Shown here: positions 7,896 to 25,799 of the stretch, in pieces
Numbering within the stretch: position 1 is the stretch's first letter
Layout: each line of letters begins with the position of its first letter
Origin: Candidatus Woesearchaeota archaeon
GTDB lineage: Archaea; Nanobdellota; Nanobdellia; Woesearchaeales; GW2011-AR4
Direction: 5' to 3'
Assembly (NCBI GenBank): GCA_016192985.1
Contig: JACPTC010000017.1
Span: 65,766-129,765, forward strand
Length of the DNA: 64,000 nt
Position numbers and translations under genes: made by a program
The notes under the pieces: model-generated
Databases searched by the model: none
What the model saw: the letters and a program-made list of their open reading frames with translations, nothing else
What the model was told of the DNA's origin: nothing

Positions 7896-10148
7896 ATGGG
7901 GGCGTTATCTGTAGTTTTGTTCTTTTTGTATACATGGGGCTTTGGTTTTTCATTGGCAAAATTTGTTAAGGAGACTGAAAGTTTTTTTGAAAGAAATGTT
8001 ATAAGAATAGGCCTAGGTCTTGCTGCAGTTCCATTAGTTGGGGTAATGCTGAGCTTATTTAAGATTCCTGTTGATTGGAGAATTTTTTTAGGGCTTAGCT
8101 TATTGCACCCTTTATTTTACATTCTTAAGAACTATAAAAACTTTAAGCCGAACTTAAACCTAAAATTCAGAAAATCTGATTTGAATTTTTTGCTGGTTAT
8201 TTTGATTTTTTCATTAGCACTCCATATGTATTTGAAAGGCGCATTTGCTTATCCCTATCTTGAGGATGACGATTCATGGTCGCATGCGCTGGGCGTTAAA
8301 TATGTATCAGTCCAAAAAACTTTTTTCAACCAGTTTGGAGGCATCCATTATCTAGACCCTTATCCGCCTGTTTATGACGGCATTTTGGGGTTAATGCATC
8401 AAACATCCCCTTCACTTATGTGGACTCTTAAGTTTTTTAATGCCTTAATCATATCTTTGAGCATCCTATTTTTTTACCTTCTTGTAAAAGAATTAACAAA
8501 TAATTCGGCTGTTGCACTGTTCTCAACAATTGCTTTGTCAATGATCCCTGCTTATCTCAGCCATTTTATCTGGGCGCACTCGTTTGTGCCTGCATTTATT
8601 TTCTTGTCGTTTCTGTTTCTCGAGAGAACAAAGCACGACAAAAAGTGGATGTATCTTGCTTCTGTTGCTATTGCGGCGCTTATTCTTACTACTGTGACTC
8701 AAAGCCTGAAATTTATGTTTTTGTTTTTAATATATCTTGCGGTTAAATGCGCTATTGAAAAAAGATTTGTTTTTGAAATCTTTTTTGCAGGAGCCCTTGG
8801 TTTTATCCTCTCCCTTATATGGTGGATACCTCTCGCTTATAGATATGGAAGCGTCCTTGATTTGCTTAAAAAACTTGGGCTTGCTTCTGATGTTTTCGCC
8901 CTGCCTCTCAGCTATCTAAACAGCCCTTACCTTTATCTTGGCCTTGCTGTTTTGAGCATTGGAGCATTTGCAATTTATTATTTTATGAAGAATAAGCTGG
9001 CTGCAAACCAAAAAAGTATTTTGGGCGTGGCTTTTTCTTTACTTATTTTAGTTTCTTATTCAGTATCATATTCATTTGTAAATGGCGTTGGAACAGCTGA
9101 TAGAATATACGACTTCAATGACTTTTTCATAGCCCACAAACAAAATCTTATTAACAACCCGTTAGGATTGGGAATTGCGGTGTCTGCGCTTTTTTTTATA
9201 ACACTGATTTTCGTAATAATCAGGCAATTTTCTGTAATAAAAGCAAAAAAAGAATCAATGCCAAAAACCCAATTTCATATTCTATTATATATCAATGCAA
9301 TTAATTCAATTCTCTTAGCAGTTTCATTACTCTCTTTTTTTTCCTTTAGATTCAAGCCGGGCACTTTAATAAAGCAATGGATGCTTCGGGAGCCAAGCAA
9401 TTACTCCTATATCTACTCATTCTCATTTAAAGTTTGGGGAATTTATCTGTTAATTACAACCCTCATTATTGTAGCTTCTGTCTACATATTTTTAATTTGC
9501 AAAGGCTGCATTGAAAAGCAAAAATTTTGGATTCCACTCTCGCTTTTATGGTTTGTATACTCTTTTGCAGGATTGTACGACATACCAACCCAGATGTTCA
9601 CTTTCAGAATATGGGCAATGCTTGCCTTTATCTTAAGCATTTTTGTAGGATACGGTTTTATTTCTACTTTGAAACTGGCGCAAAGGTTAGGTGCGCCGCA
9701 AATAATAGTCTGGACGATTTTTATAGCTCTGATTTTTTATACTTCAGGAATCCAAAAATATGCGATTAACACCTCAATCTGGCCGCCCGGCGGTTTCTGG
9801 ACATCAAACGACGAAATAAAAGGCTATATCTGGCTCAAAGATAATCTGCCATCTGAAGCAAAGATATTTACTTTTTCAAACAACGGCGTGATTATAGGAT
9901 TTGATAAATACATCTGCCATTGGTGCCAGGATGTCAGGGAATTCCAAAGCAGAGGATTTAACAGCACAGCACAGGAATTGCACAAATGGCTTAAGTCCAG
10001 AAATTACCAGTATTTTGTTTTGGATGGGCAAACTGCCCGCAAGTACGGCATCAACGAGACAAACCAAAAACTGCAGTCCACACTTTCATCCGGACTATTC
10101 AAGCCGGTTTACCAGACTAACGGCTTCATTTTGTTAAATGCCGCATAA
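7896..10148 (+). CDS. Polytopic membrane protein, GT-C-like glycosyltransferase candidate
   Basis: 750 aa, about 13 hydrophobic helices, acidic DDDSWSH motif in the first loop as in ArnT/PMT/STT3-type enzymes. No WWDYG motif was seen. Confidence 0.4.
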   Translation: MGALSVVLFFLYTWGFGFSLAKFVKETESFFERNVIRIGLGLAAVPLVGVMLSLFKIPVDWRIFLGLSLLHPLFYILKNYKNFKPNLNLKFRKSDLNFLLVILIFSLALHMYLKGAFAYPYLEDDDSWSHALGVKYVSVQKTFFNQFGGIHYLDPYPPVYDGILGLMHQTSPSLMWTLKFFNALIISLSILFFYLLVKELTNNSAVALFSTIALSMIPAYLSHFIWAHSFVPAFIFLSFLFLERTKHDKKWMYLASVAIAALILTTVTQSLKFMFLFLIYLAVKCAIEKRFVFEIFFAGALGFILSLIWWIPLAYRYGSVLDLLKKLGLASDVFALPLSYLNSPYLYLGLAVLSIGAFAIYYFMKNKLAANQKSILGVAFSLLILVSYSVSYSFVNGVGTADRIYDFNDFFIAHKQNLINNPLGLGIAVSALFFITLIFVIIRQFSVIKAKKESMPKTQFHILLYINAINSILLAVSLLSFFSFRFKPGTLIKQWMLREPSNYSYIYSFSFKVWGIYLLITTLIIVASVYIFLICKGCIEKQKFWIPLSLLWFVYSFAGLYDIPTQMFTFRIWAMLAFILSIFVGYGFISTLKLAQRLGAPQIIVWTIFIALIFYTSGIQKYAINTSIWPPGGFWTSNDEIKGYIWLKDNLPSEAKIFTFSNNGVIIGFDKYICHWCQDVREFQSRGFNSTAQELHKWLKSRNYQYFVLDGQTARKYGINETNQKLQSTLSSGLFKPVYQTNGFILLNAA

Positions 10149-10197: not shown

Positions 10198-10734
10198 ATG
10201 GAAGAAAATAAACCATTTTACGATAAGAAATCACTAAAAAATTTTAAATCAAAAAAAATACTGGATTTGGCAGCTGCAAAAACAAAAATATTCAGGATCA
10301 AGGGCAGGGGTAAGACAGCGGGCTTGTGCCATGGTGGCTTTGACCTTTTGCACCCCGGACATATAAGGCATTTTGAAAGCGCAAAAAAACTTTGCGATTG
10401 CCTGTTTGTCTCAGTAACATCCGATAGGTTTGTTTCAAAATTGAAGGGGAATGGCAGGCCAATATTCACAGACAAACTCAGGGCATATGCTGTTGCAGGC
10501 ATAGAATTTGTGGATTATGTTGTAATCAGCGATTTTAAAACTGGTGTTGAAGTTATAAGACTCCTAAGGCCCAGCTATTACATAAAAGGCCCTGATTATA
10601 TTGATAAAAACGACATGGCGTTAAAAGAAGAGATTTCTGCCATAAATTCTGTGGGCGGAGCCATAAAATACACTAATGACCCTAAGTTTTCAACCACAAA
10701 AATAATAAAATATATCAAGGAACACTTTGATTGA
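10198..10734 (+). CDS. Sugar-phosphate nucleotidyltransferase, RfaE/HldE domain II-like (heptose-1-P adenylyltransferase-like)
   Basis: GLCHGGFDLLHPGHIRHFESAKKL (HxGH cytidylyltransferase motif), NGRPI, KGPDY; resembles the HldE C-terminal domain. Confidence 0.7.
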   Translation: MEENKPFYDKKSLKNFKSKKILDLAAAKTKIFRIKGRGKTAGLCHGGFDLLHPGHIRHFESAKKLCDCLFVSVTSDRFVSKLKGNGRPIFTDKLRAYAVAGIEFVDYVVISDFKTGVEVIRLLRPSYYIKGPDYIDKNDMALKEEISAINSVGGAIKYTNDPKFSTTKIIKYIKEHFD

Positions 10735-10760
10735 ATCGCTGCAAAGAAGCCAAATTTATT

Positions 10761-11477
10761 CTAAAACCTCTCTAAGATTTTATACCTTACGAAAAGTTTT
10801 GCAACTGTTTTTATGACTCCAAACACATTATGTGGCATGAAAATATTTATTGACATCTGCTTTTTATGCATCTGCATTGGAACTTCCTTGTAAGTATACC
10901 CCTGATGTAGGAACTGGATAATAATCTCTGCAAATAATGCGCAGCTGTTTGTTGTCATTTTTATATTTTTAAGGAGCTTCCTCCTGCAAAGATTCAATCC
11001 CAGATAATAATTTATGTTCTGCCCGAATAGGAAGTTTGTCGCGCCTGTAAATGCGCCTGAAATTACCCTCCTGTACAAAGGGCGCACTTTTTTGTTTTCA
11101 ATGTATGTTATGATTAAATCAGCTTCACCTGCATGCTTAATAAGCGCCCTTATAGACTCTTCTTTAATCTCATTGTCGCCTGGAACTCTTGTCACGTAGT
11201 CTTTTGTGGCCAATTCCAAACCTTTCTTATACGAGAAGCCCATTCCCTTGTTGGTTTTTGAATGAAACACTTTAATTCTGTTGTCATCCTTTTTCAGCTT
11301 GTCTGCTATTTCCGCTGTTTTGTCGCTGCTGCCGTCATTTACAATTATTATCTCGTATTCGTCAATAAGGCCATTTACTGCTTTCTTTACAGTATTTACA
11401 GTATCTTTTAGATTCCTCTCTTCATTGAAAGCAGGCACAATTATACTTAAAGAATATCTTGACTTTTTTTTTGCCAT
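10761..11477 (-). CDS. GT2-family glycosyltransferase
   Basis: LSIIVPAFNEERNL ... IIIVNDGSSDKT ... RVPGDN; 238 aa. Confidence 0.75.
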   Translation of the reverse strand: MAKKKSRYSLSIIVPAFNEERNLKDTVNTVKKAVNGLIDEYEIIIVNDGSSDKTAEIADKLKKDDNRIKVFHSKTNKGMGFSYKKGLELATKDYVTRVPGDNEIKEESIRALIKHAGEADLIITYIENKKVRPLYRRVISGAFTGATNFLFGQNINYYLGLNLCRRKLLKNIKMTTNSCALFAEIIIQFLHQGYTYKEVPMQMHKKQMSINIFMPHNVFGVIKTVAKLFVRYKILERF

Positions 11478-11489
11478 TTCAAATTTTGA

Positions 11490-12728
11490 TTACCTGTTTC
11501 TGAAATCTTCCATCGTTTCAGTTAAAGCATCTATAACTCTTTTTATCTCCCACTCCCTCATCTGAGGGGAAATTGGCAGGCTCAGCTGCTCGTTAAACCA
11601 GGCACGCTCAAGATTAGGACATTCACCCATGCCATGGCCCCTCATGCGCATTATGCCGCCTAGGTGCATTGGCCAAAACCTTATTACGATGTGTATGTTG
11701 TATTTTTCCTCTATATATTTAACCAAATCGTTCCTGTTGATTTCACCTCCATAATCCAAGAAAAAAGTAAAAAGGTGCCATGCATGTTTACACCCTGGCA
11801 GAATCTTTACTTTTCTTAAGCCTTTAATATTATCGATAGCATCATTGTATCTATTGGCAATATTTTCCCTGATAGAATTAAATCTGTCAAGCTTCTTTAG
11901 TTGCACTCTGCCTACTGCCGCTTGCGGTGTAGACATCCTGTAAGTTTTTCCAACCTCCATTATGCTTTTCCACTCATAGTCCCATGCGTCTCCTGGGTGC
12001 ATGAATGCAACTGATTTCGGCTTTGGATAGTCACCAAGATTTGACGCCTGCCTTTTTATTCGCTCTCCATAAGGGAAATTTGTGCGCAATCCTTGTGCAA
12101 TCTCATGCCATTCCCTTCTATTTGATACAATCATGCCTCCTTCGCCAAGTGTTGTAATGTTCTTAAGAGTTGAAAATGAAAAGCACGCAATATCGCTGTC
12201 GCTGCCTATCTTTTTCCCTTTGTATTCTGCCCCAAGCGCATGGGCAGCGTCCTCGATTACAACTATACCATGCCTATGTGCAATTTCTCTTATTGGGACA
12301 ATATCTGCAGGATTACCACCATGATGAGTTATATATATCGCTTTTGTCTTTTCTGTAATTAAGGACTCTATCTTGTCCGCATCTATGTTTAGTGAGTCAG
12401 GATCCACATCTGCAACCTTAATGGTTACATTGCGCTCAAGAAGAGGAGCGTAAGCAGCCCAGAACGAGTTGCCCTGGCAAATAACCTCATCCTTGTCAGT
12501 CAGGTTTAAAATCTGCATAGCTATATGGAGGGCAGCACCGCATGAGCTTACTGCAACAGCATGCTTCACATTGCAGTATTCCGCAAATTCCTTTTCAAAC
12601 AATTCAACTTCTGGACCTCTTGTTAATGGCTGTCCAGATTCAATAACCCTTTTTATGGCATCAAGCTCTTCCTGCCCTAATATAGAACCAACAGGGTATT
12701 CTTCTATCTTAGGGCTTGCTTCTTTCAT
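11490..12728 (-). CDS. DegT/DnrJ/EryC1-family PLP-dependent sugar aminotransferase
   Basis: 412 aa; DIACFSFSTLKNITTLGEGGMIVSN, HAVAVSSCGAALHIA. Confidence 0.75.
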   Translation of the reverse strand: MKEASPKIEEYPVGSILGQEELDAIKRVIESGQPLTRGPEVELFEKEFAEYCNVKHAVAVSSCGAALHIAMQILNLTDKDEVICQGNSFWAAYAPLLERNVTIKVADVDPDSLNIDADKIESLITEKTKAIYITHHGGNPADIVPIREIAHRHGIVVIEDAAHALGAEYKGKKIGSDSDIACFSFSTLKNITTLGEGGMIVSNRREWHEIAQGLRTNFPYGERIKRQASNLGDYPKPKSVAFMHPGDAWDYEWKSIMEVGKTYRMSTPQAAVGRVQLKKLDRFNSIRENIANRYNDAIDNIKGLRKVKILPGCKHAWHLFTFFLDYGGEINRNDLVKYIEEKYNIHIVIRFWPMHLGGIMRMRGHGMGECPNLERAWFNEQLSLPISPQMREWEIKRVIDALTETMEDFRNR

Positions 12729-13381
12729 TTTTCCAAATCTTTTTCTTTAAAAATATGCAGTACATACTTATTTCCCATATGCACAAAGAAAGCAGGATAG
12801 CGTTTGTTGTCCACAACCCTAAGCAGATTAAACTGCTCACGTATTGTCTTGTCTATATTAAGCTCACTATCCTTTAAAGTTCTTCTCTTGCAAAAGGTGG
12901 GATTGCCAGCTTGCTTTTTTGGCTTTAAATTGGGATAAGAATCTAAAAACCTCAAAACAAGCTCAAATACCTTAAAAGTTTGCTTATGCCTGATTTCGTC
13001 ACTTAGCTCGTGGCCTTCAAAAATTATAGGCTCCTGAAAATAATAGTCACCGCTATCAATTTTTTCTGCTGCCTCAAATAAAGTGATGTAAATAACATTT
13101 TTTCCTTCAAGTATTTGATTGACAAGAGCAGCGCTTCCTCTCCCTTCTGGCAGTTTGCTTGGATGCACCACTATATTGTGCTTGTTAAGCCCCAGCATCT
13201 TATTTGACAATATTGAATTGCAGCCCAGAATAAACAATATGTCCCCTTTCTTTATGTGAGCAGGGTTGGAAATGAATTCCAATTCATGCCCTCGGCCTTT
13301 AATATTCTTAATAAGCTCCGAAACATAGTCATTGAGGTAGCTGTCTTTGTTGTCAATCATTACAGTTATTTTTAATGGCAT
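12725..13381 (-). CDS. Formyltransferase (sugar N-formyltransferase candidate)
   Basis: HPSKLPEGRGSAALVNQILEG matches the formyl-transferase HxSLLPxxRG motif; adjacent to the aminotransferase. Confidence 0.65.
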   Translation of the reverse strand: MPLKITVMIDNKDSYLNDYVSELIKNIKGRGHELEFISNPAHIKKGDILFILGCNSILSNKMLGLNKHNIVVHPSKLPEGRGSAALVNQILEGKNVIYITLFEAAEKIDSGDYYFQEPIIFEGHELSDEIRHKQTFKVFELVLRFLDSYPNLKPKKQAGNPTFCKRRTLKDSELNIDKTIREQFNLLRVVDNKRYPAFFVHMGNKYVLHIFKEKDLEK

Positions 13382-13471
13382 TTTGCGTCACAAAGCACTT
13401 ATTACACAAAAATCAAATCCCCTATTTAAATATAACTGGCATATTATAGAACCTAGAACCCTAAAAATACC

Positions 13472-14596
13472 TCAGTCCCCCACAGGCTCCAAGCCATCAT
13501 AAACCCTTTGAATAAACTTCAACAATTTCTCCTTTGTTATGCTCTCCTTATTTCCGATAATGTTTACTGCAATGCCCCCAACACAGTTTGATATAAATGG
13601 CACAAGCTCCTTTGGAATGCCCTTATAAGTAAGCAAAGACATTATCGAAAAAACTGCATCGCCAGCCCCAACTGTATCAATTACCCTGTGCGTTAAAATA
13701 GGGCATTTGAGGATTTCCTCTGAGTTATCCATGTAAGCGCAACCCTTGCTTCCAAGAGTTATCAGGATTTTGTCTGCAATCCCCATTTTTGCTAGCCTAA
13801 TCATCATTGTATCAATGCTTTCAAACCTGCTTACTAAAGCAAGCTTCATTTCGTTTTCATCCATGCTTGTAAAATTAACATGCCCATATTTGGTTATAAA
13901 ATTAAACCCGTAGTTTGAGCTGTTTGTCTGCACATTTAATGTGATATATTTGGAATACTTCTCAAGCGTTCTAATGATTTTATCGGTGATAAAGCCATGC
14001 CCAAAATCACCTACTACAACCAAATCATATTTTGGCAATTCCTTTTTAAGAGCGTCTATTATCTCGCTCTCTAGTTTTTCGCTTATCGGCACATCATTTA
14101 TGTGCTCTATTTTGAAGAGCTTATGCCCCCTTGCATAATCTATAAACCTAGTCTTTACAGTTGTTGAAGCGTCATTTTTAACAAAGAATTTTGCATTTAT
14201 ATTCCTGTTCAATGAATCTTTAATAAAATCTGCCCTGGAATTAGTATCTCCCATCAAGCTGATAAGGCTTACCTTGTTTGTAAAATTGCTTATATGGTTT
14301 GCAATAATAAGAATTCCTCCTAAGTAAACCTCATGATTCAGATAATCTACAGACATTATAGGGTCTTTTATAGCCCTCCCTTTAGGAACTGTAAAGTGGT
14401 ACTCATCAATTATGGCATCTCCTATTAGCAAAACCTTTAAATCGTCCAAGCCTTCAAGCAGTGCATTCACATCCTCAACAATAAACTTGGATTTTATTTT
14501 CTGGACATACTCTTCATTATCCATTTCAATGAAATGAAATCCTAATTTATTTATAAAACATTTGGAATTAGTATAAATATATAAACCGATTTCCAT
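13472..14596 (-). CDS. PfkB-family sugar kinase, RfaE/HldE domain I-like (heptose-7-phosphate kinase-like)
   Basis: LLIGDAIIDEYHF...GG N-terminal motif and C-terminal DTVGAGDAVFS ribokinase signature. Start may be the internal M at MDNEEYV. Confidence 0.65.
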   Translation of the reverse strand: MEIGLYIYTNSKCFINKLGFHFIEMDNEEYVQKIKSKFIVEDVNALLEGLDDLKVLLIGDAIIDEYHFTVPKGRAIKDPIMSVDYLNHEVYLGGILIIANHISNFTNKVSLISLMGDTNSRADFIKDSLNRNINAKFFVKNDASTTVKTRFIDYARGHKLFKIEHINDVPISEKLESEIIDALKKELPKYDLVVVGDFGHGFITDKIIRTLEKYSKYITLNVQTNSSNYGFNFITKYGHVNFTSMDENEMKLALVSRFESIDTMMIRLAKMGIADKILITLGSKGCAYMDNSEEILKCPILTHRVIDTVGAGDAVFSIMSLLTYKGIPKELVPFISNCVGGIAVNIIGNKESITKEKLLKFIQRVYDGLEPVGD

Positions 14597-14608
14597 ATAC
14601 CATTAAAA

Positions 14609-15649
14609 ATGGCAGACAAACAGAAAAGGGCGATTGTAACAGGAGGGGCAGGATTCATAGGTTCGCATATGACAGAGCTTTTGTTAAGCAGGGAATATAA
14701 GGTTATTTCGATAGATGACTTGTCAAATGGACAGCAGGAAAATATTGACATTTTCACGGATAATAAAAATTATGAATTCTTAAAAATTGATTTGTCACAG
14801 AAATTTGACGACTCGCTGTTTAAGGGCACTACTTACGTATTTCATATGGCTGCTCTTGCAGACATAGTTCCATCAATACAAAAACCATTGAAATACCACA
14901 ATGCAAACGTCAACGGCACAATAAATGTTCTTGAAGCGTGCAGGAGACATAGAGTTAAAAAATTAATTTACAGCGCATCATCATCTTGCTATGGAATCCC
15001 TGACATATACCCAACATCAGAGAATGCAGAAATGAGGCCACAATATCCATACGCATTCACAAAACTTATTGCAGAACAGTATGTATTATTCTGGCATAAG
15101 CTATATAAACTGCCAGTGGTGTCATTAAGGTACTTCAATGTTTATGGAACAAGAGCGAGGACAAATAACACCTATGGTGCGGTTTTTAAGGTTTTTTTGT
15201 CTCAGAAACTGCACAACAAGCCCTTGACTGTTGTCGGAGATGGCAGACAGACAAGAGACTTCGCTTATGTTACAGATGTTGCTAAGGCCACTTTAATCGC
15301 CGCAGAGTCCGATATAGTGGGCGAAGTTATAAACATAGGCACAGGAGCCCCAAAATCCGTCAATTATCTTGCAAAACTTATCGGCGGCAAAACAATACGG
15401 ATTCCAAAAAGACCAGGAGAGCCGGAATCAACGCATGCAGATATTAAAAAAGCAAAAAATTTGCTGAAGTGGATGCCAGAGGTGACATTTGAGGAGGGAG
15501 TTCAAATCATGCTTAACAATATAGGATACTGGAAAAACGCGCCTCTCTGGGACAAGAAATCAATCAAAAGCGCAACAAGGACATGGTTCAAGTACCTATC
15601 TAAACAAGGTGGTAAAAAATCAAAAGCAGATTATTTAATACAGTACTAA
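14609..15649 (+). CDS. NAD-dependent sugar epimerase/dehydratase (SDR, GalE/UXS-like)
   Basis: AIVTGGAGFIGSH Rossmann motif, catalytic YAFTK (YxxxK). Confidence 0.8.
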   Translation: MADKQKRAIVTGGAGFIGSHMTELLLSREYKVISIDDLSNGQQENIDIFTDNKNYEFLKIDLSQKFDDSLFKGTTYVFHMAALADIVPSIQKPLKYHNANVNGTINVLEACRRHRVKKLIYSASSSCYGIPDIYPTSENAEMRPQYPYAFTKLIAEQYVLFWHKLYKLPVVSLRYFNVYGTRARTNNTYGAVFKVFLSQKLHNKPLTVVGDGRQTRDFAYVTDVAKATLIAAESDIVGEVINIGTGAPKSVNYLAKLIGGKTIRIPKRPGEPESTHADIKKAKNLLKWMPEVTFEEGVQIMLNNIGYWKNAPLWDKKSIKSATRTWFKYLSKQGGKKSKADYLIQY

Positions 15650-16614
15650 TTACGGGTGGCTCTGGCTATGTTGGCAGCGCCTTAGTTCCAAAACTGCTTT
15701 CCCACGGATATAAAGTAATTGTATATGATTTGTACATCTATGGAGATGTTTTTTCTGATATAAAAAACCCAAACCTTATTGAGATAAAAGGAGACATAAG
15801 AAACCAAGATATTCTTATAAATGCTGCTAGAGGCGCTGATGCAATTATACACCTTGCATGCATTTCCAATGACCCAAGCTTCGAGCTTGACCCAGCAGTA
15901 GGCAAATCAATAAATTATGATGCGTTTTACAATGTCTTGGAAGCGGCAAAAGCCAATAAGGTGAAAAGACTGATTTATGCAAGCACATCAAGTGTCTATG
16001 GGATTAAGTCCGAAAAGGATGTTATCGAAACAGCTTCATTGGAGCCGCTGACAGATTACTCTAAATACAAGGCAGAATGCGAGAGAGCGCTTGCAGATTT
16101 TAATGGTGGCTTTGAATGGGCCATAATTAGGCCTGCTACTGTTTGCGGTTATGCAAGAAGGCTAAGGCTTGATTTGGTTGTCAATATCATGACAATCAAT
16201 GCCCTAGTCAATAGGAAAATAAAGATTTTCGGCGGCGAACAGCTGAGGCCAAACATAAACATACTAGATATGGTGAGAGTATACGAGCTTTTTTTGTCAG
16301 CTTCAAGCGAAAAGATAGATGGCCAGACTTTCAATGCGGGATTTCAAAACCTTTCACTAATTGAAATTGCTAAACTTGTGAAAAAAGTATGCAATCAAGA
16401 TACGCCAATAGAAATCGTACCTACAAACGACAAGAGATCTTACCACATCAATTCTGACAAGATAAAAAAGGTCATGGGCTTTAAAACAAAATTCACTGTT
16501 GAAGACGGGATCAGAAGCCTGATTGGAGCTTTCAATAAAGGACTGATAAAAGACGGCTTGAGTAATCCACTATATCACAATATCAAGAGAATGCAGGAAG
16601 TCCAGTTGAAATAA
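15640..16614 (+). CDS. NAD-dependent sugar epimerase/reductase (SDR) with no canonical start codon
   Basis: Frame is open from 15616. It encodes ...TVLITGGSGYVGSALV (Rossmann motif) upstream of the only canonical start (TTG 15730), so the start must be non-AUG or mutated. Catalytic YSKYK motif is present. Confidence 0.65.
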   Translation, partial: TVLITGGSGYVGSALVPKLLSHGYKVIVYDLYIYGDVFSDIKNPNLIEIKGDIRNQDILINAARGADAIIHLACISNDPSFELDPAVGKSINYDAFYNVLEAAKANKVKRLIYASTSSVYGIKSEKDVIETASLEPLTDYSKYKAECERALADFNGGFEWAIIRPATVCGYARRLRLDLVVNIMTINALVNRKIKIFGGEQLRPNINILDMVRVYELFLSASSEKIDGQTFNAGFQNLSLIEIAKLVKKVCNQDTPIEIVPTNDKRSYHINSDKIKKVMGFKTKFTVEDGIRSLIGAFNKGLIKDGLSNPLYHNIKRMQEVQLK

Positions 16615-16641
16615 CCCAAATTTTGATGTTTTAATCATACA

Positions 16642-18546
16642 ATGATAGAAATAGTCTACCTAATTTTTTTGATGCTGGTTTCAATTGCACTAGGCCAGTG
16701 GATTTTAAAACTATTAAAGGTAAGCTTTTCCTCCTATTTGGAAGAGTTTGTTTTTTCCTTGCCGCTTGGATTGTCCACTTTGGCTTATACCACTTTTTTA
16801 ATAGGAATTGTGGGGTTTTTATACAAGCCAGTCATAATCCTAATATTGGCTGTACTTTTTGTTATTCTGTTCCGCGACATAAAAAGATGCTTGTCAAATA
16901 TTGCTAACACCCTAAAAAAATTCAATTCAAAGTCATTGATAAACAAATATTATATCGGGTTTGATTTTTATTCTATTCTTATTGTTTTTATTGTGTTTTT
17001 TGCCATCTTCAATTTTGTGCTTAGTTTTACCCCGCCATGGCATTTTGACGTGCTTGCATACCATCTGGCTGTGCAAAAACTCTACCTTAATGCCCACAAG
17101 ATCATTTATTTGCCTTATCTTTTCTTCTCTAACCTGCCATCATTGGTTGATTGGATATACCTTATTGGCCTTGTACTGCATAATGGCATATTGTCCAATC
17201 TGCTCGGCTACTCTCTTGGAATAGTCTTTATTTTGGCAATTTACTCATTTTGCAGGAAATTCTTCAATCATAGAATTGCTTTGCTGTCATCATTAATTTT
17301 TTACAGCATTCCAATGGTCTCAATGCTAGCAAAAACAGCGCACATAGACGTACAGTTTGCCTTATTTATATTTCTGGCCATATACGCTTTGTTTTCCTAC
17401 TTTTCATCTAAGAGCAATAAATGGCTTGCTTTATGCGCAGTTTTTTCAGGTTTGGGAGCATCAACAAAGATATTCGGCGCAGCAGCTGTTCTGGGAATTT
17501 TATTATTGCTTCTCTTAAATATGGCATCAAGAACAGCAAGCAATGGAATTGGATGGAGGCAATTTTTATTGAGACTAGCCATGTTTGGCGTCATTGCCAT
17601 ATTCGTAACTTCTCCATGGCTTTTGAAAAACTACTTCTTCACAGGGAATCCATTCTGGCCTGCGCTAAATAACATTTTTCATGGCAAATACTGGGATGAA
17701 AATCATCAGGAAGACCTTTCAAAGATGATAAATCTTAGAAAGCCAAGCTTGGCAAACTATGCAAGGCTGCCATGGGATATACACACTCAGGCAGGCAAGA
17801 GTGCAGGAAATATAGATGAAGATTTGGAGATTGGGCCATTCCTGCTTGCCTTTTTGCCAATTTATCTGTTGCTAAGCAAAAAGAACAAAATCATAAACCA
17901 GATGCTTCTTCTAGTTTTTATTTATCTGAGCATCTGGTTTTTCTTATCGCATGTCCTTAGGTATGTGATATTCATAATGCCTTTGGTAGCAATAATCTCA
18001 GCTTATGTATGTGAGGAACTTCTTAACAACTTCCGCATATCAGCAATCCTGAAGGCACTTCTTGTCTTTACTTTCAGCTTTAACCTAATATTCTTGATTC
18101 TATCAACTGCAAAAGAACTGCCTGTTGCAATAGGGTTTGAAACAAAAGACGCTTTTTATTCAAAGTATCCAGGAGCAATATACAAGGCTTCAAAGTTCGT
18201 CAATTCCAACCTGCCTGAAAACTCAAAAATTTTGCTTTTTAGGGATACAAGAGGTTACTTCCTTGACAGGGACTATGTATGGGGTGATCCTTTAATGCAA
18301 TTGTATATTGACTATTCAAAATTCAAGAATGAAGACGAGCTTTATGAAGAGCTGAAAAGCAAAGGCATAACCCATATACTGGCTAACACAAGGTTTAGTT
18401 GGAGTAATGTGCTTCAAGATGTTGTAGCAAATGACTACAGGTATAACAAGAGAATATTAGGCTTGATGGATAATCTATTAATAAAACATACCGTTAATAT
18501 TTACGATAATGAAGGCATTTTGATAAACAGAATGAAAAATGAATAA
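16642..18546 (+). CDS. Polytopic membrane protein, GT-C-like (ArnT/PMT-type) glycosyltransferase candidate
   Basis: 634 aa, about 12 TM helices followed by a C-terminal soluble domain; sits in the glycan cluster. Confidence 0.4.
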   Translation: MIEIVYLIFLMLVSIALGQWILKLLKVSFSSYLEEFVFSLPLGLSTLAYTTFLIGIVGFLYKPVIILILAVLFVILFRDIKRCLSNIANTLKKFNSKSLINKYYIGFDFYSILIVFIVFFAIFNFVLSFTPPWHFDVLAYHLAVQKLYLNAHKIIYLPYLFFSNLPSLVDWIYLIGLVLHNGILSNLLGYSLGIVFILAIYSFCRKFFNHRIALLSSLIFYSIPMVSMLAKTAHIDVQFALFIFLAIYALFSYFSSKSNKWLALCAVFSGLGASTKIFGAAAVLGILLLLLLNMASRTASNGIGWRQFLLRLAMFGVIAIFVTSPWLLKNYFFTGNPFWPALNNIFHGKYWDENHQEDLSKMINLRKPSLANYARLPWDIHTQAGKSAGNIDEDLEIGPFLLAFLPIYLLLSKKNKIINQMLLLVFIYLSIWFFLSHVLRYVIFIMPLVAIISAYVCEELLNNFRISAILKALLVFTFSFNLIFLILSTAKELPVAIGFETKDAFYSKYPGAIYKASKFVNSNLPENSKILLFRDTRGYFLDRDYVWGDPLMQLYIDYSKFKNEDELYEELKSKGITHILANTRFSWSNVLQDVVANDYRYNKRILGLMDNLLIKHTVNIYDNEGILINRMKNE

Positions 18547-18657
18547 CAAGCTGAAAAGCGCTTTTACATTGCTGTGGATACTGTTTTTCTACCTATCACA
18601 CTATTATTTTGTAATAAAGAAATACCTCATTCTTGTACCAAACTACATAAAATTTTT

Positions 18658-19650
18658 TTAGTCTCCTAAAACACCTATGCTCCTGTAATATTTTATTGCT
18701 CTTTTTACAGACTCATTTAGTGGAATTTTCGGCTTCCATCCTAATCTTCTCGCTTTGCTGTTGTCAAAATATTTATAGTTAAAGTGCCATCTTACTGATT
18801 CTGTTGTGAGTGGCGGTTCATCAATTAAATTCTGGAAAAAAGCGCCTAACAGATACATCGGATAATAAGAAACCCTAGGCAACATGAAGCGTATCTTTGG
18901 CTTTTTGAGGAGCTTCGCAATAAGATTATAGAAATCATAAATCCTTGCATTGTTGGTGCTGAGTATATACCTTTCCCCCACCACGCCTTTTTCCATGACA
19001 AGAATCAAGCCATCAACTATGTCTTCCACCGCGACATTTCCGCCACCGCCAGGATAAACAAATTTTATTCGGCCTTGGTATATGCTTTGATACAATCCAA
19101 ACCTTCTTTTGTCAACCTCACCGGCTCCTATAACATAGGACGGGTTTGCAATGACCGCTTTAAGCCCTCTTCCGACATAATACTTTACTTTGTCTTCAGC
19201 AAGCTTTTTAGACTGGGCATATAGGTTATCCTTGAAGTCAAGATTGTAATTCTCATTTAATTTTATCTTCCCGCTTTTTGCGAATCCAAACACAGAGCTG
19301 GAACTTACATTGACCACCTTTTTGACATCTGATTTCAGGCACGCTTTCATAACATTCTCTGTTCCCAAAATATTCGTGCTGAATATTTCATTCTTGCGCT
19401 TTGGACTGCTCAATGTGCATGCTGCCAAATGGAATAGATAATCCGAGCCCCTGACGGCATTTAACACGGACTTGTAATTCCTTATGTCACCTTTTATTTT
19501 TTTTATCTTAAGACCACTTAGAAACGGATGATTTATGTCTCTGGCGAAAACAGTTATTTCGTTTTTGCCGTCATAAAGCTTTCTTACTAGGTTGGCTCCT
19601 ATAAACCCGGAGCCCCCTGTAACCACTATTTTACCTTGGATTTTGCCCAT
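18658..19650 (-). CDS. NAD-dependent epimerase/dehydratase (SDR)
   Basis: KIVVTGGSGFIGANLV Rossmann motif, YAQSK catalytic motif; 330 aa. Confidence 0.75.
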   Translation of the reverse strand: MGKIQGKIVVTGGSGFIGANLVRKLYDGKNEITVFARDINHPFLSGLKIKKIKGDIRNYKSVLNAVRGSDYLFHLAACTLSSPKRKNEIFSTNILGTENVMKACLKSDVKKVVNVSSSSVFGFAKSGKIKLNENYNLDFKDNLYAQSKKLAEDKVKYYVGRGLKAVIANPSYVIGAGEVDKRRFGLYQSIYQGRIKFVYPGGGGNVAVEDIVDGLILVMEKGVVGERYILSTNNARIYDFYNLIAKLLKKPKIRFMLPRVSYYPMYLLGAFFQNLIDEPPLTTESVRWHFNYKYFDNSKARRLGWKPKIPLNESVKRAIKYYRSIGVLGD

Positions 19651-19779
19651 ATTTCCTGTCCCTAAATCTCTAACAAATAAAAATATCTGCTCAGTTCCTC
19701 TATTTAAAAATTTTATCGCTTTTCTGTTCTAAATTCTAAATAGAAATATTTATATATAAGATTCCCAAGGTTTTGGAAT

Positions 19780-20829
19780 GTGGACTTGCAAAGCGTCGTA
19801 GGTTTAGAAAAGATTTTGAGCTCTACAGGTGCGCCTACGAGAATTATTCTAGGAAATGATGTTGTTTATGCTAACCCTGCTTTTCTCAGATTATTGGGGA
19901 TTGAAGAAGCTCATGCGCTCGGACCATGGAGGCATAATTTAGTTGCTGAGGATGTGCCCGGAGCCGTTGCAGGAATGGAGCTTATCATGTCCGGTAAGGA
20001 ATCTCATGCAGAATATGTGTATAGGATGGCTGATGCAAGCGGAAGAACAAAATATTTTAAAGTTTTTGCCTCTGAAGTGGCTTATGACAACCAGCTTGCT
20101 GTTATGGAAACTCTTTTTGATGTTACAGAATATGCACATGCAGCAGAAAGACAACTTGCGGCAATTGCGCATGAGCTGCGTACGCCTTTAAATATTGTAA
20201 GGCTAACCGCATCTGTATTGGAAAGGATTGACCCAAGCGACCCAAAGTTTATGAAACTTCTGAATCGCATAGCTCCCAATGCAGAACGAATGGCAGAAAC
20301 AATTGAAACTCTTATGGCTTTGGCACGCGCTGAACACGATATTAACAAAGAGCACGTTAATTTGACAAAAATGGCTTATATGACTATGGAGCGCCTTATG
20401 CAGCAAGATCCAAAGCGAAATGTGCAATACTCTATCCAAGATGGAGTTGAAGCAAGTGGCGACAAAAGTTTGCTAGGCGTAGTTTTAACGAACTTGCTGG
20501 GAAACGCTTGGAAATACACAAGCAGAATAACTGATGGGCCAGCCTTAATAGAGTTTGGCTGTCGTCCATACAATGGTAATGACACAAGTCATAGTGGAGA
20601 CTGGGCATATTTTGTTCGTGACAATGGCGCTGGATTTGATCCGGCTACTGCTCAAAACTTATTTGGTTTTGGTCAACGCCTGCATTCTGAGCAACAATTT
20701 AAAGGAAACGGAATCGGGCTTAATACGGTAAAAAAAATAATAGAGTGCCACGGCGGCAAAATATGGGCTGAAGGCGCTGTTGGCAAAGGCGCGACTTTCT
20801 ACTTTACACTGCCTTTAGGTCAATCTTAA
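19780..20829 (+). CDS. Sensor histidine kinase (PAS-like N-terminus, HisKA, HATPase_c)
   Basis: H-box IAHELRTPLN, N-box LLGNAWKYT, G1 DNGAGFD, G2 GNGIGLNTVKKIIECHGG. GTG start. GC content is visibly above the local background. Confidence 0.8.
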   Translation: MDLQSVVGLEKILSSTGAPTRIILGNDVVYANPAFLRLLGIEEAHALGPWRHNLVAEDVPGAVAGMELIMSGKESHAEYVYRMADASGRTKYFKVFASEVAYDNQLAVMETLFDVTEYAHAAERQLAAIAHELRTPLNIVRLTASVLERIDPSDPKFMKLLNRIAPNAERMAETIETLMALARAEHDINKEHVNLTKMAYMTMERLMQQDPKRNVQYSIQDGVEASGDKSLLGVVLTNLLGNAWKYTSRITDGPALIEFGCRPYNGNDTSHSGDWAYFVRDNGAGFDPATAQNLFGFGQRLHSEQQFKGNGIGLNTVKKIIECHGGKIWAEGAVGKGATFYFTLPLGQS

Positions 20830-20956
20830 TAAACTCAAAACCATTTGACAGAGAACAGCTTGTGTTATACTATCCTATTATTTGTCAGTAGCAGCATAAT
20901 CCATTTTCTGATTATAAAAAGATTTAAAAGATGGCTTAGTCGTATGAGATAAAGAA

Positions 20957-22003
20957 ATGACAAAAAGCATATTAAAACCACTAAAACAAGCGGGATGGAA
21001 TGGTAGCCAGAGAATGATATTCATAGCGCTGAATGGTATTGGCAATACAATCATTCTGACTCCTGCCTTGGTAAATCTCAAGAAGAATTGGCCTAAATCT
21101 TATGTCACAGTATTGACTTTGAGAGATTCTGTGGGAATTATCTCAAGCAATCCTTATATAGACGATGTTATTGTTTACCCATCAAAAAAATCATTATTAT
21201 CAAGAATCGTGTTTCTATTAAAACTAAGAAGGCAAAAATATGATATAAGCTTTTATCCGTATCCAAATGTCAATATAATGAGTGCATTATTTGCATTTAT
21301 CATAGGAGCAAAATGCAGGGTAAATTTTTATTACAGATTTCTGGGCAAGTGGAGCGGGATTTTTGACTCTATCAGCGTTCCGGTCGACCTTGAAAAGCAC
21401 GATATAGAAAAAAATCTGGATTTGCTTAGGGCATTAAACCTGAAAATATACTCTAAAAACCCCTGTATCTACATTAAAAAAGAAGATACGAAATATGTTG
21501 ACGGGCTTCTTAAAAATAATGTAAAAAGAAAAGACATATTGATTGGCATGCATGTTGGCTCAAAAGAAGGAATGAGAATATGGCATACGGAAAATTTCGC
21601 TTCTTTAGCTAAGAAGCTTTCAGCGGATAAAAGAGTTAAAATATTGCTTGTCGGCACAGATATAGAAATGAACCTCATCAAAGATTTTGGCGAATTTAAA
21701 AAGCAGAATATCATCAACCTTATAAACAAGACGACAATACCTCAAACAACTGCATTAATCGGAAGATGCAAGCTTTTTGTTACAACAGACTCTGGACCTA
21801 TGCACATGGCAGTTGCTGCTGGAACAAGGGTAATTGCCGTTTATCTTGGCCCGCATATAAAAAGAACCGCGCCATACGGCAAAAAGCACATAGTATTTTT
21901 GACAAACAAGGCTACTCATAAGGAAGACAAAAACAAAAACCACATTTACGTTGACAAAGTGACTCCAGACATGGTTTTTAAAAAAATTAGGAAGATACTG
22001 TGA
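20957..22003 (+). CDS. GT9-family glycosyltransferase (heptosyltransferase-like)
   Basis: GT9 signature KLFVTTDSGPMHMAVAAGTRVIAVYLGP; HVGSKEGMRIWHTENF. Confidence 0.7.
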   Translation: MTKSILKPLKQAGWNGSQRMIFIALNGIGNTIILTPALVNLKKNWPKSYVTVLTLRDSVGIISSNPYIDDVIVYPSKKSLLSRIVFLLKLRRQKYDISFYPYPNVNIMSALFAFIIGAKCRVNFYYRFLGKWSGIFDSISVPVDLEKHDIEKNLDLLRALNLKIYSKNPCIYIKKEDTKYVDGLLKNNVKRKDILIGMHVGSKEGMRIWHTENFASLAKKLSADKRVKILLVGTDIEMNLIKDFGEFKKQNIINLINKTTIPQTTALIGRCKLFVTTDSGPMHMAVAAGTRVIAVYLGPHIKRTAPYGKKHIVFLTNKATHKEDKNKNHIYVDKVTPDMVFKKIRKIL

Positions 22004-22016
22004 TTCCTTATAAAAA

Positions 22017-23144
22017 TCACTGAATGAAACATCTATAAAATTTTTCAGCCACCTTGCCTATTGTAAAATTATTCAAAATATACCTTCTGCCCTTATCTGC
22101 CAATTTTTCAGCATATTTTTTGTTATCCAGCAGCATTTTGATGCCATTTGCCATATCATTAACGTCAAATTTTTTTGTAACAATTCCATATTCCTTGTTT
22201 TTGACCGCAAACTCAACACCGCCGCAATCCATAACCAACACTGGAATTCTGCATGCAAGAGCCTCATTCACAGCAGGAGTAATCTCTTGTGTATTTGCGA
22301 GAACAAAAACAGAGGACATATTATATATGACAGCAAGCTCAGCGTGGCTCTTTGCCCCTAAAAACTTTATCTTATCTCCTATCCCCAAACCTTCAGATAA
22401 CTGAACAAGTTCGTCTTTATAATAACCCTCGCCAACAATCCATAACTCAATGTCATAGCCCCTATCTATAATCTCTTTTGCTGCCCTGATAATCATATCG
22501 TGACCTTTTAATTTATAAAGCGCACCAACCGATAAAACAACAGGTCTTGAGTTTTTTTTAACATTCATGGGCTTGAAGCAATGTACATCAGTGGGATGCC
22601 CAATTACCACACTTTTTTTGGAACCTTTCTGCAGCAAACCAAGGTTTATGCATCTTTTTTCAGCTTCAGGGTTTGCAAATAAAAGGTATCTTGCGTAATT
22701 GCAGGCTTTTTCAGCAAAATACAACGCTATTGGTTTTGTATACTTAAATAAGAAAAAACCCTCAATGGTCTGGGAAGTCCTGTATATCAGCCTGATTTTG
22801 TATTTTTTAGCTGCCAAATATGATTGATAGGCAAACCAATAAAATTCAGGATTACTTGATTCTATGGCATCATAACCCTTTAATTTGCCAATCAAATCAA
22901 AATAATAAAACCTTGGAAAACCCAAAAGCAGGAATATTTTTTCGATTACCGTTCTATAATCCAAGCTATTTATCTTTTCAACTTTAAAGTTTTTGTAAGA
23001 AAAATTGTTTTTTGCATCGGTAAATATTGTAACTTCTATCCTATATTTTTTTATCAAATATTCATAAACTTTCAGTAAATTTTGCAATGAGGACTTTATG
23101 TCGGGCTGTGTAGGAATTACAACAGCCACTCTCAATTTTTTCAT
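22017..23144 (-). CDS. GT4-family glycosyltransferase (Glycos_transf_1)
   Basis: C-terminal E...PVLVMDCGGVEFAV motif region and LGIGDKIKFLG. Start set at MKKLRVAVVIPT to avoid overlap with the wecB-like gene. Confidence 0.7.
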   Translation of the reverse strand: MKKLRVAVVIPTQPDIKSSLQNLLKVYEYLIKKYRIEVTIFTDAKNNFSYKNFKVEKINSLDYRTVIEKIFLLLGFPRFYYFDLIGKLKGYDAIESSNPEFYWFAYQSYLAAKKYKIRLIYRTSQTIEGFFLFKYTKPIALYFAEKACNYARYLLFANPEAEKRCINLGLLQKGSKKSVVIGHPTDVHCFKPMNVKKNSRPVVLSVGALYKLKGHDMIIRAAKEIIDRGYDIELWIVGEGYYKDELVQLSEGLGIGDKIKFLGAKSHAELAVIYNMSSVFVLANTQEITPAVNEALACRIPVLVMDCGGVEFAVKNKEYGIVTKKFDVNDMANGIKMLLDNKKYAEKLADKGRRYILNNFTIGKVAEKFYRCFIQ

Positions 23145-23196
23145 ATTATTCCTCAATAGATAACTATTTATATACCTTTTTGTTTTTTCAGACGAT

Positions 23197-25777: not shown

Positions 25778-25799
25778 GCCCCAAAAATCCGCAGATAAA

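Follow-up and report, generated by a model that had tools for sequence, protein, structure and literature searches.

Heptose nucleotides were long held to be a bacterial hallmark and are now known as innate-immune agonists made across kingdoms, and their purpose in archaea is presented as an open question in PMC11573728. The bacterial ADP-heptose pathway, described in 2002 work that is summarized in PMC10948575, uses four folds, a SIS_2 isomerase, a PfkB kinase, a HAD-IIIA phosphatase, and a cytidylyltransferase-fold nucleotidyltransferase (NTase). According to PMC11461863 and PMC11573728, Tang et al. (Science 2024) reported functional nucleoside diphosphate (NDP)-heptose enzymes across kingdoms, the archaeon Methanococcus maripaludis included, and ADP-heptose clusters have been noted in the glycan islands of M. 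maripaludis (PMC12667266). Heptose NTases carry an (F/L)XXGXSTT motif and occur in mono-, di-, and tri-domain forms, as stated in PMC11461863, and Arg at motif position 5 is tied to CTP/UTP promiscuity (Tang et al. 2024, summarized in PMC11461863 and PMC11573728). In this study, we analyzed a stretch of 64,000 nucleotides, hereafter called the window, from the metagenome-assembled genome (MAG) of a Candidatus Woesearchaeota archaeon (DPANN), and all positions are given in its numbering. The window encodes a PfkB kinase and a stand-alone NTase related to HldA and HldC of the ADP-heptose pathway, together with a glycosyltransferase (GT) of family GT9. These three open reading frames (ORFs), which a first-pass annotation had named, were all found, with family matches far beyond chance:

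10198..10734, (+): stand-alone cytidylyltransferase-fold NTase of the window-type HldC-like family, 178 amino acid residues (PF01467, TIGR02199)
13472..14524, (−): PfkB-fold sugar-phosphate anomeric kinase of the window-type HldA-like family (Pfam PF00294, TIGR02198, structural model, and tree)
20957..22003, (+): GT9-family GT-B glycosyltransferase, 348 amino acid residues (PF01075, 96.8 bits against a gathering score of 22)

By sequence comparison, the kinase and NTase of the window are not orthologs of HldA and HldC and instead fall into a separate family, here called window-type, that is a sister to these enzymes. We regard it as moderately probable that the two proteins are functional partners within this sister family, acting in a glycan island with a four-step logic like that of the ADP-heptose pathway, in a locally reduced form.

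Kinase and nucleotidyltransferase in relation to HldA and HldC

The longest ORF of the kinase spans 13472-14596 (−); because the homologs and the gene callers all begin at Met25, the gene is most likely 13472-14524, encoding 350 amino acid residues. The best NCBIfam model was TIGR02198 (rfaE_dom_I; E-value of 4.7e-36), with a score of 124.5 bits that is below the equivalog cutoff of 345 bits, and the best PDB match by sequence was HldA (4e84). The AlphaFold model of the kinase (predicted local distance difference test score [pLDDT] of 90) has a PfkB fold. When this model was compared with the PDB by Foldseek, the top seven matches were all HldA of Burkholderia cenocepacia (E-values of 2e-25 to 3e-24), and the first PfkB match other than HldA was Pfk-2 (E-value of 5.6e-19). 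As judged from the model, the closest solved structure is HldA, not another PfkB kinase. The kinase contains DTVGAGDAV, a motif invariant in the window-type family that includes the GAGD anion hole and the catalytic Asp, and it retains 46 of the 47 alignment columns in which conservation within the family reaches 90% or more. The sole deviation is A73I, and one deviation is the family median. The lid motif of the family, GRAxKDP, is also retained with its basic residues, whereas canonical kinases have SPEAP at this site; the charge of the lid is reversed, with Lys53 in the window-type kinases and Glu in the canonical ones.

The NTase contains GGFDLLHPGH and matched PF01467 at 57 bits. Its best NCBIfam model was TIGR02199 (rfaE_dom_II; E-value of 2e-32), at 112 bits and below the equivalog cutoff of 181.5 bits, and its best PDB match by sequence was HldC of B. 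pseudomallei (5x9q). It showed 58–61% identity to the NTase part of NTase-HAD fusion proteins of 355–359 residues and 37% identity to canonical DPANN HldC, and it ends at the point where the HAD-IIIA domain starts in the fusions of its relatives. Forty-four of 47 family-conserved columns are retained, including HPGH and STT; one of the three deviations is a change from Arg to Leu. Of the forms reported by Tang et al. (2024), the window NTase corresponds to the mono-domain one, and it carries STT. Its motif reads NDPKFSTT and differs from (F/L)XXGXSTT at positions 1 and 4, with no Gly at position 4, and Phe stands in place of Arg at position 5. The HldC of 5x9q, when aligned with the window NTase, likewise lacks Gly at motif position 4.

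A ribokinase or RibL-type FAD synthetase identity of the kinase and NTase was rejected because the corresponding models scored 17–43 bits, compared with 112–124 bits for the rfaE models. The grouping with ribokinase or FAD-synthetase families that the first-pass annotation had named as its refutation was therefore absent, and the families it gave, RfaE/HldE domains I and II and GT9, were confirmed as the nearest characterized ones.

The window kinase was 51–64% identical to the window-type DPANN kinases compared with it directly, 45–64% across all members labeled Woese-, Nano-, and Pacearchaeota, and 17–25% to canonical kinases (23% to one canonical DPANN HldA and 20% to Escherichia coli HldE), while canonical DPANN HldA and E. 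coli HldE were 38% identical to each other. An unrooted, distance-based neighbor-joining tree was constructed from 61 kinases with 300 bootstraps. In this tree, the 48 window-type kinases were split from the 13 others, comprising E. coli HldE, canonical DPANN kinases, and other bacterial copies, with 100% bootstrap support, and E. coli HldE clustered with the canonical DPANN kinases with 99% support. The DPANN contig L005 carries a canonical set in which HldA, HldC, GmhB, and GmhA scored 375, 182.4, 164, and 201 bits against cutoffs of 345, 181.5, 178, and 209 bits, respectively. At a distance of 6 kb from this set, L005 encodes a second kinase of the window type, which is 54% identical to the window kinase and scored 118.8 bits on TIGR02198; the contig L018 also holds both the canonical and the window-type sets. 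Because the canonical set of L005 reaches or nearly reaches the cutoffs, the low scores do not merely reflect fast evolution in DPANN. Bacterial NTase-kinase fusions of the window-type family also scored under the NCBIfam cutoffs. The scores far under the cutoffs and the 100% bootstrap split thus argue against orthology to HldA and HldC, and the earlier reading of the two proteins as bacterial-style enzymes of this kind was not supported in this respect. By structural comparison, the window-type kinases are nevertheless the closest relatives of HldA.

The window-type set across genomes and its reduction in the window

To define the family, the species genomes of GTDB were scanned with a kinase alignment and combined with contig look-ups, which gave 49 non-redundant loci (designated by L numbers), most of them from DPANN and some from bacteria. 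Co-occurrence was counted in the 30 loci whose kinase is flanked by 5 kb or more in each direction. Full-length relatives with 33–43% identity to the window kinase occur in a single Thermoplasmata MAG and, in a scattered manner, in bacteria that include Desulfobacteraceae, Sumerlaeota, Elusimicrobia, Riflebacteria, Cloacimonadota, and Pelagibacteraceae. The partners near the window-type kinase were the NTase in 26, the SIS protein in 19, HAD-IIIA in 18, a DegT aminotransferase in 16, a homolog of the window GT2 (10761-11477) in 15, a homolog of the second short-chain dehydrogenase/reductase of the window (SDR2) in 13, a GT-C membrane protein in 7, and GT9 in 2 of the 30 loci.

The GmhA-like SIS domain (for example, in L003:9938-11635, L092:11037-11591, and L093:7087-7644) is either fused to the C-terminus of the kinase, in proteins of 545–557 residues, or encoded by the next, overlapping gene. 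The partner NTases are usually fused at their C-terminus to HAD-IIIA (355–359 residues), and the HAD part is recognized by the models for GmhB and histidinol phosphatase. Bacterial members carry the NTase ahead of the kinase in one protein (476–479 residues), which is the opposite of the order in HldE. The window-type fusions differ from bacterial HldE in being kinase-SIS, NTase-HAD, and NTase-kinase in reversed order, and neither the NTase-HAD nor the kinase-SIS form belongs to the three architectures described by Tang et al. (2024).

The window-type SIS protein is closest to GmhA, with 111–115 bits on TIGR00441 against a cutoff of 209 bits. Where GmhA has its catalytic residues Glu65, Gln172, and His180 (PMC4697000), the 29 sequences compared show Asp (29 of 29), Glu (28 of 29), and His (27 of 29), respectively; Asp94 is present in all 29, and the phosphate-binding serines are retained by 27 to 29 sequences. 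Glu-Gln-His is unchanged in canonical DPANN GmhA. The four activities of ADP-heptose synthesis are thus all represented in a parallel set that is able to coexist with the canonical set. This set shares the four folds and their linkage by gene fusions with the bacterial ADP-heptose pathway, whereas the window-type scores amount to a third to two-thirds of the equivalog cutoffs and the isomerase has Asp-Glu-His in place of Glu-Gln-His.

Genes for split transketolase/E1-type thiamine pyrophosphate (TPP) enzymes and an acetolactate-synthase-like TPP enzyme recur beside the window-type kinase in L001, L005, L092, and L011, and so do genes for NDP-sugar C-methyltransferases and radical S-adenosylmethionine (radical-SAM) enzymes. 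These neighbors hint at branched or chain-extended sugars in DPANN islands.

The window holds a reduced form of this set. Neither SIS/GmhA nor HAD-IIIA/GmhB was found in the 64 kb by tblastn with a DPANN SIS domain, by phmmer seeds, or by Pfam on ORFs of at least 150 residues, in agreement with the first-pass annotation, which had reported that both were missing from the window; none was found in a further 4.6 kb to the left of the window. The HAD protein encoded at 171-869 was rejected as a substitute for GmhB because it is a PpaX-like HAD-IA protein and shows no conserved association with the kinase family; it could conceivably act as a non-specific phosphatase. Metagenomic homologs comprised 7,871 SIS matches and 1,061 kinase matches. 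When the SIS of this MAG was sought among them, none of the best 120 of the 7,871 SIS matches (at least 67% identity) lay on the contig of the window, and the family is too large and conserved for a single MAG to be singled out in this way.

In the kinase tree, the window kinase grouped with those of L013, L092, and L093 with 99% bootstrap support, and all three of these loci have SIS directly downstream of the kinase. In the window, this position is filled by a formyltransferase-like gene, which neighbors the kinase in 1 of the 30 loci, that is, in the window only. Among the DPANN loci with flanks of at least 5 kb, the window is the only one that has neither SIS nor HAD-IIIA. The same gene order and sequences were recovered in independent assemblies from several samples. 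Because nearly all family-conserved residues are kept and the arrangement recurs in independent assemblies, the kinase and NTase are probably active despite the reduced set. Such a set would need either a salvaged sugar or an isomerase and a phosphatase from other parts of the MAG.

The GC content and the GC content at third codon positions (GC3) of the kinase, NTase, and GT9 genes equal the window average, and a recent transfer of the three genes from a high-GC donor was rejected on this basis. The nearest relatives of all three proteins are from DPANN, and the DPANN window-type kinases form a clade with one Cloacimonadota sequence with 82% support. The horizontal acquisition proposed in the first-pass annotation is thus not indicated as a recent event. 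Because the window-type family is shared between domains, an ancient inter-domain transfer, in some direction, is likely.

The GT9 protein and the surrounding glycan island

The GT9 protein contains TTDSGPMHMAVAAG. It scored below all heptosyltransferase cutoffs, with 117.3, 88.4, and 61.6 bits on TIGR02201, TIGR02195, and TIGR02193 against cutoffs of 170.2, 134.6, and 185.3 bits, respectively. Its structural model (pLDDT of 93.7) matched Veillonella GT9 (3tov), E. coli WaaF, and E. coli WaaC in Foldseek with E-values of 4e-21, 2e-17, and 6e-14, respectively, and on the strength of this model the product is a bona fide GT9-family GT-B protein. It belongs to a clade of 25 proteins at 50% or higher identity, every named one of which is from Woesearchaeota; beyond this clade, identity drops to 29% or less, and identity to the E. 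coli heptosyltransferases is 23% or less. Asp13 of WaaC, which lies in the N-terminal xGD motif and is the catalytic base of heptosyltransferases (bioRxiv 10.1101/2021.06.16.448588 and 10.1101/2022.06.13.495986), corresponds to Asn30 in the window GT9, and the position is Asn in 24 of the 25 clade members. All four E. coli enzymes have Asp there, as do 16 of the 17 relatives beyond the clade (P0146-P0162), and P0147 has Asn. The donor-side residues with which WaaC contacts ADP-heptose have counterparts across the clade, Lys192 as Arg, Asp261 as Asp278, and His266 as His283, and the donor-side motif D(S/T)GxxH is conserved. The clade also has an invariant Asp149 after the conserved His148 (KHDVEKN), where the E. 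coli enzymes have Ala, Met, or Ile, and this Asp149 might be a replacement catalytic base.

Compared with WaaC, WaaF, and WaaQ (CAZy GT9), the window GT9 is alike in its GT-B fold, its D(S/T)GxxH donor motif, and its equivalent of Lys192 (Arg). It differs from them in the change of Asp13 to Asn, in the identity of at most 23%, in the lack of a 3-deoxy-D-manno-octulosonic acid (Kdo)-lipid A acceptor in archaea, and in its context, a block with a Wzx-type flippase. The protein might bind an ADP-heptose-like donor, as its residues suggest, but it is not classifiable as a heptosyltransferase. The earlier designation as a GT9 heptosyltransferase consequently stands for the family and falls for the function, since Asp13 is missing and the scores are below the equivalog cutoffs.

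The three genes had been taken as a single toolkit, and this view did not hold. The GT9 gene belongs to a different block and lies near the window-type kinase in only 2 of the 30 loci, and no heptose-nucleotide genes were found within 10 kb of GT9 in the contigs of three relatives. The block conserved between the window and its relatives, with synteny in L010, consists of an HpnA-like SDR, GT9, GT4, UDP-N-acetylglucosamine (UDP-GlcNAc) 2-epimerase, and a flippase. The conserved SDR neighbor of GT9 is as follows:

18658..19650, (−): SDR3, HpnA-like, conserved GT9 neighbor (TIGR03466, 174 bits, below cutoff)

SDR3 adjoins the GT9 ortholog in L010 and lies near GT9 in L011. In the window, a gene for a PAS-HisKA-HATPase histidine kinase (19780-20829, +) lies between the HpnA-like SDR and GT9, and it is an insertion, as SDR3 and GT9 are adjacent in the L010 block. 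The encoded protein is rich in Ala and Gly, the GC content of the gene is 0.43 compared with 0.37 for the window (GC3 of 0.34), and no receiver domain was seen nearby. The longest ORF of GT4 (22017-23306, −) overlaps the start of the UDP-GlcNAc 2-epimerase gene (23197-24309, +) by about 110 bases; the long N-terminal extension of GT4 is probably not translated, and the gene callers use a version of 375 residues. In one Woesearchaeota genome (L018:12930-19402), canonical HldC, GmhB, and HldA lie 3 kb from a distant GT9 with Glu at the catalytic-base position, and this pairing of a heptose set with a GT9 is more convincing than that in the window.

The host of the window is an archaeon of a Woesearchaeota MAG. 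An Rfam scan of the window detected an archaeal RNase P RNA at 44919-45293 and an archaeal signal recognition particle RNA at 42224-42515, and the kinase and GT9 proteins are 100% identical to database entries named Candidatus Woesearchaeota archaeon, from which the archaeal host follows. The right-hand third of the window encodes the archaeal housekeeping proteins aIF5B, ribosomal proteins L1 and L10, Trm1, and an Rpb7-like protein. According to a Pfam scan of the window ORFs, a large glycan island spans positions 1 to about 39,500, and the island as a whole exceeds 40 kb. Its genes encode several transferases of the GT2 and GT4 families, a pair of DegT aminotransferases, five or more SDR epimerases/dehydratases, and a GDP-mannose-dehydratase-like protein. 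Also encoded are methyltransferases, a carbamoyltransferase, a B12-radical-SAM enzyme, a UDP-GlcNAc 2-epimerase, a Wzx-type flippase, and membrane proteins of the PMT_2/YfhO type. The genes for the kinase, NTase, and GT9 are all located within this surface-glycan island, and the surface-glycan setting proposed for them earlier proved correct.

The genes around the kinase and NTase are as follows:

7896..10148, (+): 750-residue polytopic membrane protein upstream of the NTase (no Pfam or NCBIfam match; relatives are DUF6541)
10761..11477, (−): GT2 glycosyltransferase, 238 amino acid residues, last gene of the kinase operon, convergent with the NTase (PF00535, 100 bits)
11490..12728, (−): DegT/DnrJ/EryC1-type sugar aminotransferase (PF01041, 315 bits; PseC, ArnB, and WecE models below cutoffs)
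12725..13381, (−): formyltransferase-like protein, immediately downstream of the kinase (PF00551, 29.6 bits; weak matches to fmt, ArnA, and sugar N-formyltransferase)
14609..15649, (+): SDR1, SDR epimerase/dehydratase, divergent from the kinase (PF01370, PF16363)
15619..16614, (+): SDR2, SDR epimerase/dehydratase (GalE and dTDP-glucose dehydratase models match below cutoffs)
16642..18546, (+): PMT_2-type GT-C membrane glycosyltransferase (PF13231, PF02366)

The kinase heads a co-directional, tightly spaced operon on the (−) strand, followed by the formyltransferase-like, DegT, and GT2 genes. The NTase gene, behind that of the 750-residue membrane protein, converges on this operon from the (+) strand, and the two SDR genes and the PMT_2 GT-C gene diverge from the kinase. 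The GT2 protein aligns over its full length, at 30–46 bits, to models of dolichyl-phosphate hexose transferase, PpgS, and ArnC, and its homologs (160–264 bits) adjoin the window-type NTase in 15 of the 30 loci; it is a candidate polyprenyl-phosphate sugar synthase. SDR1 scored 174 bits on the GalE model and 137 bits on the heptose 6-epimerase model, both below cutoffs, and is 27.5% identical to E. coli HldD; a homolog (at least 350 bits) is present near the kinase family in 10 of the 30 loci. Homologs of SDR2 (200–450 bits) were found near the kinase in 13 loci, those of bacteria included. The annotated start of SDR2 at 15730 cuts off the Rossmann motif TGGSGYVGS, which lies upstream of the first ATG, GTG, or TTG. 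The frame is open from 15616, overlapping the end of SDR1 in another frame, and it is the same in independent assemblies, while the relatives start with ATG or have both SDRs fused. These features point to a non-canonical start codon (ATC or ATT) in SDR2, or to some coupling or recoding. Homologs of the PMT_2 GT-C protein, a candidate user of a lipid-phosphate-linked sugar, were found near the kinase family in L016, L022, L023, and L024, and homologs of the 750-residue protein in L001 (annotated as DUF6541), L028, L037, and L044.

The operon structure and the recurrent neighbors point to a downstream route of tailoring and lipid loading. In this route, the NDP-sugar would be oxidized or dehydrated by the SDRs, aminated by DegT, and then N-acylated or perhaps N-formylated. 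GT2 would load the sugar onto polyprenyl phosphate, and the PMT_2 and 750-residue GT-C proteins would use it outside the membrane.

Several other features of the window were observed. A protein of 1,030 residues with a CARDB domain and no other family match is encoded at 47543-50635 (−); it may be an S-layer-like surface protein and a candidate target of the glycan island. The C-methyltransferase encoded at 1889-4267 (−) has 792 residues, compared with 412–415 in its relatives, and contains a large intein-like insertion with a LAGLIDADG homing-endonuclease domain. The carbamoyltransferase encoded at 25725-28439 (+) has 904 residues, compared with 582 in one relative, and also carries an intein-like LAGLIDADG insertion. 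A stand-alone ORF at 53697-54794 (−) joins LAGLIDADG and an ArsR-type helix-turn-helix domain. Inteins in glycan-modifying enzymes instead of replication proteins are unusual.

Proposed chemistry, alternatives, and relation to described pathways

The four steps of the proposed pathway would be the conversion of a ketose phosphate to an aldose phosphate, phosphate transfer to the anomeric carbon by the kinase, the removal of the distal phosphate, and the joining of the resulting sugar-1-phosphate to a nucleotide. That the window-type set runs a second pathway with the four-step logic of ADP-heptose synthesis is the most economical inference from its domain content, and this pathway probably yields an NDP-heptose that is different or is handled separately. 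The first-pass annotation had offered a related 7-carbon or hexose-1-phosphate activation chemistry as a fallback; this comes close to the reading favored here, with the chemistry in both cases deduced from the enzyme families.

The absence of local partners can also be read as a sign of repurposing. The kinase and NTase would then form a two-step salvage route in which a free sugar from the host or the environment is phosphorylated at C1 and subsequently nucleotide-activated. Neither the isomerase gene nor the phosphatase domain would be needed for such a route, which would account for both being dispensable. The SIS gene and the HAD-IIIA domain are indeed both missing, which is unique among the DPANN loci with adequate flanks, and the loss of SIS would be recent, since L013, L092, and L093 still have it. 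Both enzymes otherwise look intact, stand-alone NTases without HAD are also present in L015 and L029, and DPANN archaea are metabolically reduced symbionts. However, L015 and L029 still have SIS, and the genes for the isomerase and phosphatase could lie elsewhere in the MAG. The kinase deviates at only one of the 47 conserved columns (A73I) and keeps the lid GRAxKDP, which argues against a change of substrate, and we consider the salvage route unlikely. If the two genes were instead decaying, non-functional remnants of a lost pathway, the lack of the partner isomerase and phosphatase in the vicinity and the three deviations in the 47 conserved columns of the NTase, including Arg to Leu, would be accounted for. 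Both ORFs are, however, full-length with intact catalytic motifs, namely GAGD for the kinase and HPGH together with STT for the NTase. Moreover, the single deviation of the kinase equals the family median, and independent assemblies of several samples agree in gene order and sequence, so that decay is very improbable.

The other two alternatives concern the identity of the sugar. The reading proposed earlier, a bacterial-style heptose toolkit acquired by transfer with GmhA and GmhB encoded elsewhere in the genome, agrees with the best curated models and solved structures, which are those of HldA, HldC, and GT9 heptosyltransferases, and with the WaaC donor-side residues kept in the window GT9 (Lys192 as Arg, Asp261, and His266). 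In addition, archaeal enzymes have been shown to make ADP-heptose (PMC11461863 and PMC11573728). We judge it distinctly unlikely because all three proteins are below the equivalog cutoffs, yet canonical DPANN copies reach them; because the kinases split with 100% bootstrap support and both sets coexist in L005 and L018; because GT9 lacks Asp13, accompanies the kinase family at 2 of 30 loci, and has no heptose genes within 10 kb in three relatives; and because the genes do not depart from the window in GC or GC3 and have their nearest relatives exclusively in DPANN. At the other extreme, the window-type family might activate a sugar other than a heptose, such as a hexose or octose phosphate supplied by the variant SIS, and its likeness to the heptose enzymes would reflect shared folds and logic. 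This would fit the scores of the four window-type components, which reach roughly half or less of the heptose-family cutoffs (a third to two-thirds for the kinase and NTase), the replacement of two of the three GmhA catalytic residues in the window-type SIS, the charge reversal of the kinase lid (Lys53 instead of Glu), and the coexistence of the window-type set with canonical sets. Nevertheless, each component is matched far better by the curated heptose family than by the other families of SIS, PfkB, HAD, and cytidylyltransferase proteins, and the GmhA phosphate-binding serines and Asp94 are conserved in the window-type SIS. We know of no other pathway that combines these four folds, and activation of a non-heptose sugar appears quite improbable.

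The gene layout of the window is similar to that of the Arn pathway for undecaprenyl-phosphate-4-amino-4-deoxy-L-arabinose (L-Ara4N), which comprises the formyltransferase/dehydrogenase ArnA, the aminotransferase ArnB, the GT2 ArnC, and the GT-C ArnT. In the window, a formyltransferase-like gene, DegT (212 bits on the ArnB model), SDRs, GT2 (46 bits on the ArnC model), and a PMT_2 GT-C are clustered in the same manner. The two systems differ in that the window scores are far under the Arn equivalog cutoffs and in that the association with the kinase and NTase holds for GT2, DegT, and SDR2 and not for the formyltransferase.

Several points weigh against a four-step pathway with the two window enzymes as partners. 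The pathway is incomplete at this locus, as no isomerase or phosphatase is encoded within about 69 kb. The sugar and nucleotide assigned to the window-type family are those predicted from its relationships, the kinase tree is a distance tree without an outgroup, and the polyprenyl-phosphate role of GT2 is suggested by weak model matches of 30–46 bits. Some third-party annotation contigs of the family bear the doubtful label "uncultured Methanosarcinales", and their sequences group with DPANN members. In addition, the relative L010 has a block of formyltransferase, DegT-SDR, and PMT_2 genes with no kinase or NTase nearby. Because of this block and because the formyltransferase lies beside the kinase in 1 of 30 loci, the Arn-like tailoring genes may act on another NDP-sugar.

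For a sister pathway with a variant isomerase, a described precedent is HygP, a GmhA-family isomerase that converts sedoheptulose-7-phosphate to an altro-heptose epimer, which is then processed by GmhB and HldE (PMC10948575). The septacidin and hygromycin pathways yield variant heptose epimers and 4-amino-heptoses derived from ADP-heptose, according to work cited in PMC10948575. As described there, a variant of the GmhA family alters the heptose epimer and the downstream enzymes still process it, a situation like that envisaged for the window-type set. Compared by description, these pathways belong to actinobacterial secondary metabolism, whereas the window-type set is linked to membrane glycosyltransferases in glycan islands. 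Tailoring of NDP-heptose by an SDR and an aminotransferase was reportedly described by Tang et al. in 2018, which would parallel the SDR2 and DegT partners found here.

In the literature searched, the separate window-type family, which is marked by an Asp-Glu-His isomerase and by fusions of NTase to phosphatase and of kinase to isomerase, appears to be undescribed, as do its abundance in DPANN glycan islands and the GT9 clade with Asn for Asp; earlier coverage is possible, for the family in particular in Tang et al. (2024). We tentatively put forward, as a possible but doubtful extension, that the window-type set is a second nucleotide-heptose pathway abundant in DPANN, whose product would be another epimer or conjugate than ADP-D,D-heptose and would be aminated and loaded onto dolichyl phosphate for surface glycosylation by GT-C enzymes. 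Under the same proposal, the lineage studied here would have been stripped to a kinase and an NTase acting on a host-derived precursor, and the GT9 clade would work without the canonical Asp.

The contribution of the window itself is more modest, as it holds a reduced copy of the window-type system and an unlinked, atypical GT9. Our results caution against transferring the labels "ADP-heptose synthase" and "heptosyltransferase" by homology. They show that many "RfaE-like" annotations in DPANN belong to a distinct, paralogous four-enzyme system with its own active-site signature and fusions, which is located in glycan islands beside glycosyltransferases of the lipid-phosphate type, and they offer a hypothesis for the role of heptose-like sugars in archaea, namely that these sugars may serve cell-surface glycosylation via a lipid-linked donor.

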